Shown piece after piece: positions 12,266 through 38,737 of a stretch of DNA of 64,000 nucleotides. The notes below the pieces were generated by a model that saw nothing but the letters and a program-made list of their open reading frames with translations, did not search any database and had not been told where the DNA came from. The stretch covers positions 49,602,001 to 49,666,000 of the forward strand of contig NC_058382.1 of assembly GCF_018350175.1 (NCBI RefSeq). The letters run 5' to 3'. Position 1 is the stretch's first letter. Each line of letters begins with the position of its first letter. A program made the translations under genes and the position numbers. The DNA comes from Felis catus (taxonomy: Eukaryota).

Positions 12266-15200
12266 TCAGTTGGCGGCAAGAATTTCCTGAACCCAAGGAA
12301 TGAGCTTGGTGACGCGGGCGTACACGGCGGGGACGGAGGTGGAGCAGGTGCCGCTGCCCCAGGACACGATGCCCACCAGGGTCCAGGCTCCATCCTTCTG
12401 GCAGACCAGGGGGCCCCCAGAGTCGCCCTGCAGGAGGAGAAAGGACCTGTTTACAAGCCTGAAGCGGGCTGCCGGGGCCCCGGTGTGCCCTGACCTGCCC
12501 CCGCGCAGGTTCTGTGCAGACAAATGACACGTGTGGGGGCAGAGACTGGGCAGGAGGCTCTCCGATCGGGGCCACGTGGCAGGCCCAGCTCTGTCGCCTA
12601 CTCCTGGTGGGCCTGGGGCACGTGGCTGACACTCTCCCCCGGCTGGCTGGCGTGGGGGCCCCCAACGCCACTGCCGCCCAGAGGGGTGGAGCGGACGCGG
12701 CAGAAGGGAGCAGCCCCCTGGCCCGCGCGGGGGCGGGGCGGGGGCGGGGCCAGGCCTTACCATGCAGGACGAGACGCCGCTGGCCCCGGCGCAGATCATC
12801 ACGTCCGTGATCTTGCTGCCCCAGAACTTCTTGCAGTCGGCGTTGGACAGGAGGGGCAGGGCCGCCTGCTGCAGCTTGTCGGGGGTCTTGTTGGCTGGAG
12901 AGACACAGGGGGCAGGGGCGGGGGCAGGGGGGGGAGCGGAGGTCAGGAGCCCTCACCCAGCCGGCCCACCCCGGGGTGGAGGAGACCCTGCCTCCCCCCT
13001 GCCTGCTCCCAGTCCTTCCCCATCACCATGACCTCAGAAACGGAGCTCCCCACCTTCCCTCAGACCTAACAGTCCCTGCGGGACCCCTTCCTCTCCGATT
13101 CCACACCAGGCAGTGGTGACATGGCTTCCAGCACCGCTGTTCACGCGAGCCGTGCCCTGGCAGCCCGTGTGGTGGGCGGGGGGCACTGCCTCCCCTCCGG
13201 GGAAGGGGGCTGACGTCCTTTTCACGGGGCCCCTGCTGGGGACCCGCCGCTCTGGGTGGCAGATGGGGGAGCACCGTCCTCCTGCTGCCCTTTCCTGGCC
13301 GCCTCCGTCCCGGTCAAGGACAAGAGGGTGAGCCGGGGCCTGGGCAGGAGCACCCGGGGCCCCGGAGGAAGATCGTCAGCGGAGGGAGCAGCCGGGGGAG
13401 GGGAGACCCAGCCGGACTCTCAGGGCCCCGAACCACACCCGGACATCTGACTCCCGGCCCAGACTTCACGGCGGCGAGCTTGACACAAGCGCCCGCCTCA
13501 AGTCTGGAGAGGAGTCCAGGCTGGAAACCGGACCGTGGGGACCTCGTTGCAACGTAGTGAGAGTGCCACCTGCTGGTACTTGGGCATTTCTTCAGCAACT
13601 TCGTCTTCAAGTGTGCGGTATTTAAGCTCATCTTTATTTACGTTCCGAAGGTTTTCATTACGAGGGTTTTAGGGGCGCCTGGGTGGCTCAGTGGGTTAAG
13701 TGTCCGACTCTTGGTTTCGGCTCAGGTCATGAAATCTCCCAGTTTCATGGGTTCGAGCCCTGCATTGGTCTCTGTGCTGACAGCTCAGAGCCTGCCTGCT
13801 TCGGATTCTGTGTCTCCCTCTCTCTCCGCCCCTCCCCAACTTGCACTGTCTCTCTCAAAATAAACTTTTTTTTTAAAAGAGGGTTTTAAATAAATAAATA
13901 AATGGAAAGGTTTCAGAGTGTGTAGCAATTTAGACGAGAAAAAAAGGAAAAGCCATATGGGTCCCACCTGGAGACCCCCGCTGCTCAGCCCCAGCCCCAG
14001 ATACGTTTCCTGGGTGAAAAGGCCAGGTGGTGCTCACCATTGTGCTTGGTCTTCCCCCAGCCCGTGGTAGCGCACAGCAAACCGGGGGGGAACTCATCCG
14101 TAGCCGCGGGCAGGCACACAGGGGACACGGTCTCGGAGAAGCGGGCAGGCGTGGCCAACTTCAGCAGGGTGATGTCGTTACGGACGGTCAGCATGTTGAA
14201 CTTGGGGTTCTTGAAAACCTGTGGGGCGGAGCCAAAACGACAAAGTTAGGCCCTCGGATTAGTCAGCAATCTGCAGGGTCCAAGCTCTTTTCCTGGCGGC
14301 CCCCGTGCGGAAAACAGATCCACAGGAGCCCGGAATGAGAACTTGGAGGCGAGCCCAGCCACTCGGGCTCCTGTGTTCTCAAGCAGCCCAAGGGCCTTGT
14401 CCTTCTTGCCGCTGTCCCCAGCCCCGCAGCTGGGCCTCCTGGGCCAGCTGGGCAGGGCTCGGGCCTACCTTGGCGATCTTCAGGACCTGGATGTTCTCCT
14501 CATTTGCGTGCTGGTCAAACTCCCCAGCCACGACCACGTGGGAAGTCCTAGAGGAATCAATGGGGGTTAAGGACTGGGAGCGGGCCCTGCTCCCTCCTCA
14601 CCCCCACATGTGGCCAGAAGCAGAGCCCTGAGCCCGCACAGGCCTCACCTGACACCACAGTGGGCAGCAGTGACCACCCAGTCCTCGCTGATGAGGGAGC
14701 CCCCGCAGAAGTGGAAGCCGGTTTTATCCTGGAGGGACATGGGGAGGGTCAGGCTTAGCTGGACACCAGAAGCTCCCAGCCTAGCCCCAGCTGGGCTAAC
14801 ACCCCAGTGTGTCCCCCACTCTCTCACAGAAAACCCCCTCACCTGCAGGGACACCTGCCAGGGCCAGGAGCCCGGGACAGCGTCCTCGCCATTGACGATC
14901 CTGGACAGGCCATTCAGCACGGGTTCGATGGCGGGGACCCCACACTCTGGGGGAGTAGGAGAAGAGGGAAGAAGGCTGAGGCCCAGAGTCCACAGAACTC
15001 CTGCTTCCTTCCACCAGGACCCCACACCACCCTCCAGGCGACTTCTGGCCGCAGTCCTCAACCTCTAGCAACCGGGATCCCCGCGTGAAGCCAGCCCCCA
15101 GGCACCCTGCCAGGGATGCGGAGGCCAGGGGCAGGTCCTGGCGGGGGACTTCCTGATGAAGGAGCAGAAAACAGGCTGAGAAATCAGACTGCCTGGCTGG

Positions 15201-37800: not shown

Positions 37801-38737
37801 AGGCAGTGCCCCCCGCCCACCACACGGGCTGCCAGGGCACGGCTCGCGTGAACAGCGGTGCTGGAAGCCATGTCACCACTGCCTGGTGTGGAATCGGAGA
37901 GGAAGGGGTCCCGCAGGGACTGTTAGGTCTGAGGGAAGGTGGGGAGCTCCGTTTCTGAGGTCATGGTGATGGGGAAGGACTGGGAGCAGGCAGGGGGGAG
38001 GCAGGGTCTCCTCCACCCCGGGGTGGGCCGGCTGGGTGAGGGCTCCTGACCTCCGCTCCCCCCCCCGCCCCCGCCCCCTGTGTCCCTCCAGCCAACAAGA
38101 CCCCCGACAAGCTGCAGCAGGCGGCCCTGCCCCTCCTGTCCAACGCCGACTGCAAGAAGTTCTGGGGCAGCAAGATCACGGACGTGATGATCTGCGCCGG
38201 GGCCAGTGGCGTCTCGTCCTGCATGGTAAGGCCTGGCCCCGCCCCCCCGCCGGCCCCGCCCCCGCCCCGCCCCCGCGCGGGCCAGGGGGCTGCTCCCTTC
38301 TGCCGCGTCCGCTCCACCCCTCTGGGCGGCAGTGGCGTTGGGGGCCCCCACGCCAGCCAGCCGGGGGAGAGTGTCAGCCACGTGCCCCAGGCCCACCAGG
38401 AGTAGGCGACAGAGCTGGGCCTGCCACGTGGCCCCGATCGGAGAGCCTCCTGCCCAGTCTCTGCCCCCACACGTGTCATTTGTCTGCACAGAACCTGCGC
38501 GGGGGCAGGTCAGGGCACACCGGGGCCCCGGCAGCCCGCTTCAGGCTTGTAAACAGGTCCTTTCTCCTCCTGCAGGGCGACTCTGGCGGCCCCCTGGTCT
38601 GCCAGAAGGACGGAGCCTGGACCCTGGTGGGCATCGTGTCCTGGGGCAGCGACTGGTGTAACCCGTTCTCACCGGGGGTGTACACCCGTGTCACCAAGTT
38701 TATTTCCTGGGTTCTCGGGGTTCTGGAGGCCAATTGA
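34828..38737 (+). CDS. Third, divergent chymotrypsinogen B-like precursor (gene 3), 7 exons, 263 aa
   Basis: Exons 34828-34879, 35680-35783, 35870-35949, 36314-36392, 36821-37001, 38092-38225, 38576-38737 (52/104/80/79/181/134/162 nt), GT-AG, no stops or frameshifts. [37 protein letters not shown], His57/Asp102/Ser195 and all 10 mature-chain cysteines kept. TATA-like ATATAA 34775-34780, AATAAA 38778-38783. Confidence 0.9.
37120..37308 (-). mobile_element. CanSINE in gene 3 intron 5
   Basis: Reverse-complemented body and head ending ~37308. Confidence 0.85.
37354..38651 (+). repeat. Inverted near-identical duplicate, copy B (gene 3 intron 5 to exon 7)
   Basis: Partner of 12352-13638. Differences seen by eye are a few substitutions and length changes in G/C runs. 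Confidence 0.95.

Follow-up and report, generated by a model that had tools for sequence, protein, structure and literature searches.

The feline chymotrypsinogen locus contains two inverted paralogues, here called genes 1 and 3, that are nearly identical across a tract of about 1.3 kb spanning exon 6. It is highly probable that this tract is a long-lived conversion hotspot of two inverted paralogues that split before the placental radiation; that interlocus gene conversion at the tract is real and recurrent we hold with high confidence. The mechanism is a known one, and this instance of it is apparently undescribed. The analysis also brings to light a conserved third chymotrypsin, the product of gene 3.

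The chymotrypsinogen cluster

The window, meaning the whole stretch of 64,000 nucleotides of Felis catus DNA analyzed here, is the felid chymotrypsinogen cluster, and the exon map gives three intact seven-exon genes. Gene 1 (12266..16846, minus strand) encodes a B-type chymotrypsinogen (Ala226) of 264 aa, identified by the exon map and a match to Pfam Trypsin; its exons lie at 16792-16846, 14843-14946, 14649-14728, 14469-14547, 14038-14218, 12761-12894 and 12266-12427 on the minus strand, and the spliced protein is identical to P0269 (XP_023101158.1, Felis catus). Its exon 1 (16792-16846), at 55 nt, is one codon longer than those of genes 2 and 3, and many carnivore gene 1 records are also 264 aa. 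Gene 2 (31395..34314, plus strand) encodes an A-type chymotrypsinogen (‘chymotrypsinogen 2’, Gly226) of 263 aa. Gene 3 (34828..38737, plus strand) is by the exon map a divergent third chymotrypsinogen, intact and 263 aa long, with exons at 34828-34879, 35680-35783, 35870-35949, 36314-36392, 36821-37001, 38092-38225 and 38576-38737 on the plus strand; its protein is identical to P0180 (XP_023101930.1 and others). Residues are given in chymotrypsin numbering, which was checked on the bovine chymotrypsinogen B record P0349.

After gene 3, on the minus strand at 40127-54118 of the window, comes BCAR1, with an SH3 exon, a YDYVHL exon and a C-terminal exon; the human CTRB cluster is arranged likewise. 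A PTF1-like motif has an exact match upstream of gene 1 (17077-17092) and was not matched upstream of gene 2 or gene 3, which is uninformative on gene 3. CpG-rich stretches are found at about 27700-29900 (between genes 1 and 2, where no gene is assigned) and at 44400-46800. An inverted SINE pair, 6191-6408 and 25379-25597, is 96.8% identical, as compared with the 70-85% usual in the window, and represents either a young subfamily or a small conversion.

A near-identical inverted tract

The gene 1 copy of the tract (12352..13638, minus strand, GC 68.7%) takes in distal intron 5, exon 6, intron 6 and 76 nt of exon 7; the gene 3 copy (37354..38651, plus strand, GC 69.1%) lies 23,715 nt away in the opposite orientation. 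The pair is the strongest non-repeat self-match in the window. Global alignment of the copies yields 1304 columns with 1271 matches, 10 substitutions and two indels (6 nt and 17 nt, both within G/C micro-repeats), and the longest perfect runs are 335, 327 and 198 nt. Tract identity is thus 99.2% (0.78% divergence), with 1.08 kb of intron included. The original prediction had claimed a near-identical inverted tract in this place, and its coordinates proved exact. The portion private to the gene 1-gene 3 pair is 12428..13638 on the minus strand (partner 37354-38575), where gene 2 differs.

Exon 6 differs between genes 1 and 3 at 1/134 positions, as against 22/134 and 23/134 in the comparisons with gene 2, and intron 6 is identical at 333/333 aligned bases. 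Outside the tract, pS between genes 1 and 3 is 0.42 in exons 2-5 and 0.58 in distal exon 7; the rest of the two genes is strongly diverged, as had been claimed. In a Sawyer-type permutation over 201 polymorphic coding sites, 0/10000 shuffles reach a run as long as that of genes 1 and 3.

Similarity in exon 6 and early exon 7 could also come from purifying selection or convergence, and the segment does contain Ser189 and Ser195, with a pN of 0 over the first 25 exon 7 codons. However, the introns are 99-100% identical, only 1/29 synonymous sites of exon 6 differ between genes 1 and 3, and gene 2, which is similarly constrained, differs at a pS of 0.30. Lineage-specific changes held in common, in decayed copies too, likewise speak against constraint (see below). 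We therefore consider this explanation of the tract scarcely credible, although purifying selection or convergence may contribute to the exon 7 identity among all three genes.

A second alternative is an assembly or polishing artefact, in which one copy was overwritten by the other in the cat and in further assemblies. Chimeric records do exist, and the tract repeat can mislead assemblies or gene models. Collapse would, however, erase the 10 sites and two indels that distinguish the copies; it would also require earlier near-identity, which is absent in the flanks, and the pattern repeats in many separately assembled species. In addition, 14 of the 24 runs listed hold 0.91-0.95 of the words sampled from 31200-39200, which are not copy-specific sites (12 of these 14 runs are labeled as probable DNA or unlabeled). 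We regard such an artefact as very unlikely.

Recurrence across mammals

The original prediction spoke of recent or recurrent conversion, and recurrence is what the comparison among species favors: the paralogues group by species in the tract only. The per-segment test that had been proposed was run at the protein level, since the cross-species evidence consists of predicted proteins and DNA was compared in the cat only. For 17 species (136 pairs, with P0198 used as panda gene 3 and pangolin, donkey and river dolphin added), residues 149-217 contain 805 quartet sites grouping by species and 22 grouping by orthology; by-species grouping prevails in 131 pairs and orthology in 4, all of them whale pairs, with 1 tie. 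Outside the tract the grouping is by orthology, with 107 by-species and 1987 by-orthology sites in residues 1-147 (0 and 136 pairs, respectively) and 41 and 858 in residues 218-245 (orthology in 135/136 pairs). The species pairs are non-independent, and so the quartet site counts overstate support. In trees, gene 3 forms one clade (100/100) on residues 19-147, and that clade is rejected inside the tract with a p-AU of 3.8e-5 (trees of 37 rows, in which the chimeric panda record P0195 was taken as gene 3).

In 16/34 species pairs the exon 6 residues of genes 1 and 3 are the same, and in 25/34 they are no more than 2 residues apart, numbers to be read with the conservation of exon 6 regardless of conversion in mind; from this set Phocoena was left out, as its gene 1 record has no exon 6, and the black bear gene 1 row is chimeric. 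Exon 6 is not homogenised in baleen whales (6/44 and 9/44 residues differing), orca (6/44), Pacific white-sided dolphin (7/44) and aardvark (8/44).

Changes peculiar to one lineage and present in both copies include E169 in tiger (leopard and cat have K169), R169/V206 in meerkat, H149/Q150 in hyena, H149/Q170/V181/N186 in bears, N175 in horse (donkey and zebra have K175) and E179/T189 in giant pangolin; the tiger and horse changes mark young events. The panda marks R175/I188 occur in gene 1 (P0067) and in the gene 3 records P0194 and P0198, which have a normal tail. Among dolphins, false killer whale and common dolphin each have their own subset of dolphin gene 1 residues in the gene 3 protein, a pattern suggesting that gene 1 converted gene 3 on separate occasions.

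These marks bear on the reading that a single recent conversion or segmental copy took place in the cat lineage only. At a substitution rate near 2e-9 per site per year, the 0.78% divergence of the cat copies would fit a last sweep within roughly 2 million years. Nevertheless, independent marks in tiger, meerkat, hyena, bears, horses, camels, pigs, dolphins and sirenians make a single event most improbable; the cat event is only the latest of many.

Decayed copies

The gene 3 models of manatee and dugong have lost conserved residues and exon 7. Compared with manatee gene 1, these decayed copies differ at 2/44 residues in exon 6 and 29/60 in exon 5; elephant gene 1 is also only 3/44 away in exon 6, so the timing of sirenian conversion is loose. 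In giant pangolin, a decayed gene 1 matches gene 3 at 44/44 exon 6 residues. Because decayed copies were still converted, copying needs no selection for identity, and copying into them favors a mutational hotspot over such selection. Gene 1 also looks altered or decaying in panda (S216), in seals and walrus (K192), in elephant seal and in giant pangolin (records P0067, P0270, P0301, P0092, P0095 and P0363).

Tract edges and base composition

The tract is rich in GC (69%), and 0/628 sliding windows of 1287 nt are richer than the gene 1 copy; its GC3 is 96%, compared with 82-83% in exons 2-5 and 84% in gene 2, as measured in one genome with substitutions unpolarised. The GC enrichment could be a cause rather than an effect of conversion. 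Biased conversion would itself be expected to raise GC3 and intron GC, as set out in one earlier study (PMC2720389). G-quadruplex-like runs flank exon 6 in both copies (12729-12749 and 12908-12934; 38058-38086 and 38237-38274). Both tract indels fall in such runs, which are possible break or slippage sites.

At the 5' edge, intron 5 of each gene contains a SINE. The one in gene 1 (13669..13880, plus strand) lies about 30 nt beyond the tract edge and has a 10-nt target-site duplication; the one in gene 3 (37097..37318, minus strand), at a similar distance from its own tract edge, is a separate insertion that went in about 16 nt away from the corresponding gene 1 site. Both are carnivore SINEs. 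They are 80% identical (163/204), no closer to one another than to other SINEs in the window. Copying of one SINE by conversion was considered and rejected on that identity and on the differing insertion points; the target duplications differ too. Weak homology persists beyond both SINEs (4/1000 shuffles), so the tract once extended further. In other orders the felid SINEs cannot account for the 5' edge.

The 3' edge falls at codon 217, ahead of residues 218 and 226, which in human CTRB1 and CTRB2 set differences in activity and pocket width (PMC11937528). Primate pairs also differ mainly past residue 217 (human 0/217 vs 5/28). The position of the edge leads us to infer that selection probably keeps the 218-226 specificity loop distinct, while simple heterology alone would also halt branch migration there. 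Within Equus there is a switch of pocket type, with G226 in horse gene 1 and A226 in donkey and zebra (P0394, P0360).

The claim that the tract homogenises the S1 pocket was therefore upheld in part: Ser189, Met192, Ser195 and Gly216 are inside the tract, but residues 218 and 226 are outside and still different.

Gene 2 and the exon 7 piece

Gene 2 lies between the two tract copies, and the original prediction had conversion skip this nearer paralogue. In intron 5, exon 6 and intron 6 gene 2 is indeed passed over; the part of exon 7 that encodes Ser195, however, is near-identical in all three genes. The introns 5 and 6 of gene 2 are 86 and 647 nt, exactly the lengths given beforehand, and gene 2 is probably bypassed because these introns do not match those of genes 1 and 3.

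In gene 2, the near-identical piece consists of the intron 6 acceptor and the first 76 nt of exon 7 (34140..34228, plus strand). Over those 76 nt, genes 1 and 2 differ at 1 site, genes 1 and 3 at 2 sites and genes 2 and 3 at 2 sites; these are fewer differences than the flanking pS predicts (binomial P of 0.012, 0.003 and 0.001 for the three pairs), and pN is 0 in all three pairs over the first 25 codons. The three genes have this piece in common through conversion, constraint or both.

Genes 1 and 2 also share an older tract comprising exon 2, intron 2 and exon 3 (14643..14976, minus strand; partner 32070-32407), which is 86.7% identical over 339 nt (299/341 columns). Their remaining introns do not align. 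Camelid gene 3 records appear gene 1/2-like across exons 2-3.

Gene 3, a third chymotrypsin

The gene 3 protein aligns without gaps over 245 residues with chymotrypsinogens A and B and matches PF00089 with 232 bits. It keeps the H57, D102 and S195 triad, the R15-I16 activation site and all ten cysteines (five disulfide pairs); the pocket residues S189, G216 and G226 are of chymotrypsin type, and D218, W219 and G99 are also present. In contrast to the tract, 59/175 residues outside it (about 34%) differ from gene 1, mostly in loops 90-99 and 218-224. A fold predicted from the gene 3 sequence alone was discarded (mean pLDDT 35).

Searches with gene 3 exon 5 lead to orthologues in cats, bears, dogs, horses, rhino, pigs, camels, hippo, whales and pangolins, and further in otter and aardvark and in the decayed copies of manatee and dugong. 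On residues 61-147 plus 218-245 gene 3 is again a single clade (100/100), its nine rows, aardvark among them, grouping apart from 22 others in a tree whose bootstrap was incompletely settled. Going by these sequences, the split between genes 3 and 1 would predate the placental radiation, about 100 million years ago. The tandem order of genes 2 and 3 is visible in fused models of pangolins and alpaca. For primates and rodents, the protein searches returned no intact gene 3 protein, and for seals, ruminants and bats they returned no gene 3 record.

Fragments of assemblies that resemble gene 3 were rejected as transcript evidence, since they continue from exon 5 into introns. A panda pancreas paper names a ‘chymotrypsinogen B-like’ gene that could be gene 1 or gene 3 (PMC7467380). 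The literature searched contained no biochemical description of the gene 3 protein, and a search thin on subscription journals found no paper on a third chymotrypsinogen or on the exon 6 tract.

Proposed mechanism

In the mechanism that we propose, a DNA break would occur in or close to the GC-rich exon 6 region and be repaired, without crossover, from the inverted copy 24 kb off; each conversion would renew the identity that the next one requires. Gene 2 would be excluded by its non-matching introns 5 and 6. The 5' edge in the cat would be pinned by the two separate SINE insertions and the 3' edge set at residue 217/218, where heterology begins and selection probably guards the specificity loop. 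The outcome would be two enzymes with a common catalytic core segment and distinct substrate-binding loops.

Crossovers between the copies would instead invert the spacer (13639..37353, 23.7 kb), which contains the 5' halves of genes 1 and 3 and the whole of gene 2. Repeated flips of this kind, with homogenisation as a by-product as at human HsInv0030, could be imagined from the geometry of near-identical inverted arms 23.7 kb apart, and human CTRB1-CTRB2 has a 16.6-kb inversion between inverted gene copies (PMC6145291, PMC4576756). Three mammal records (P0195, P0023 and P0051) are chimeric across the tract, pairing the 5' half of one gene with the tail of the other. Against this, of 81 records that have exon 5 of gene 3 and can be scored for the tail, 72 end in a gene 3 tail, 7 are ambiguous and 2 end in a gene 1 tail (447 records scored; 13/460 long records skipped). 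In those 72 the 5' half and the tail stay paired, consistent with non-reciprocal exchange that keeps the flanks. No reciprocal hybrid pair was found in any species among the 447 scored records, and in panda and camel, other records of the species speak against the hybrids. Each of the three one-sided mammal chimeras may reflect an error or a real allele; a bird record, P0179, was a false call of a chimera. Repeated inversion is on this evidence unlikely, and repair without crossover remains our preferred reading.

The conversion makes exon 6-7 sequence unfit for orthology, selection scans, read mapping and expression counts in these genes.

Comparison with known systems

A CTRB pseudogene may lie beyond human CTRB1. 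In primates the B-type gene is partnered by the A-type gene, whereas in the cat its partner is gene 3; the primate CTRB tract begins at exon 2, whereas the cat tract is only about 1.3 kb long. In both partner systems conversion is cleanly bounded at a known functional site. The human locus is known to have the CTRB inversion HsInv0030 (PMC6145291, PMC4576756, PMC6748972) and a 584-bp deletion that covers CTRB2 exon 6 (PMC11018521, PMC12919833); LOC100506281 is in the same clump as the CTRB genes (PMC6444755) and is reported to be highly expressed in normal pancreas (PMC7648960).

A more speculative reading, which we consider possible though doubtful, would join these observations: a placental three-gene set, an exon 6 hotspot of about 100 million years that outlasted either partner, a human remnant of gene 3 and a CTRB2 deletion derived from that remnant. 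The hypothetical candidate for the remnant would be the pancreas-expressed, non-coding LOC100506281. If this were true, the 584-bp CTRB2 deletion, which is common and linked to disease, would remove the hotspot core and would itself have been copied from or provoked by the remnant, and the 217/218 boundary common to both partner systems would mark selection guarding the specificity loop. The reading gives a testable origin for structural variation at a locus of human pancreatitis, diabetes and pancreatic cancer.

Long-term mosaic concerted evolution has been described for BMP8A/B, DDX19A/B and TUBG1/2 (PMC2720389). As in the cat pair, part of each evolves in concert across mammals, with GC3 and intron GC raised. 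CTRB and chymotrypsin go unmentioned in that human-anchored scan. Unlike its pairs, as far as they are described there, the cat pair bypasses a nearer paralogue, its tract stops within an exon at a functional boundary, and some lineages are exempt. TLR1/TLR6 are like the cat pair in that conversion is confined to one segment of functionally distinct paralogues; they are described as tandem, however, whereas the cat pair is inverted with a third gene between (PMC2077338).
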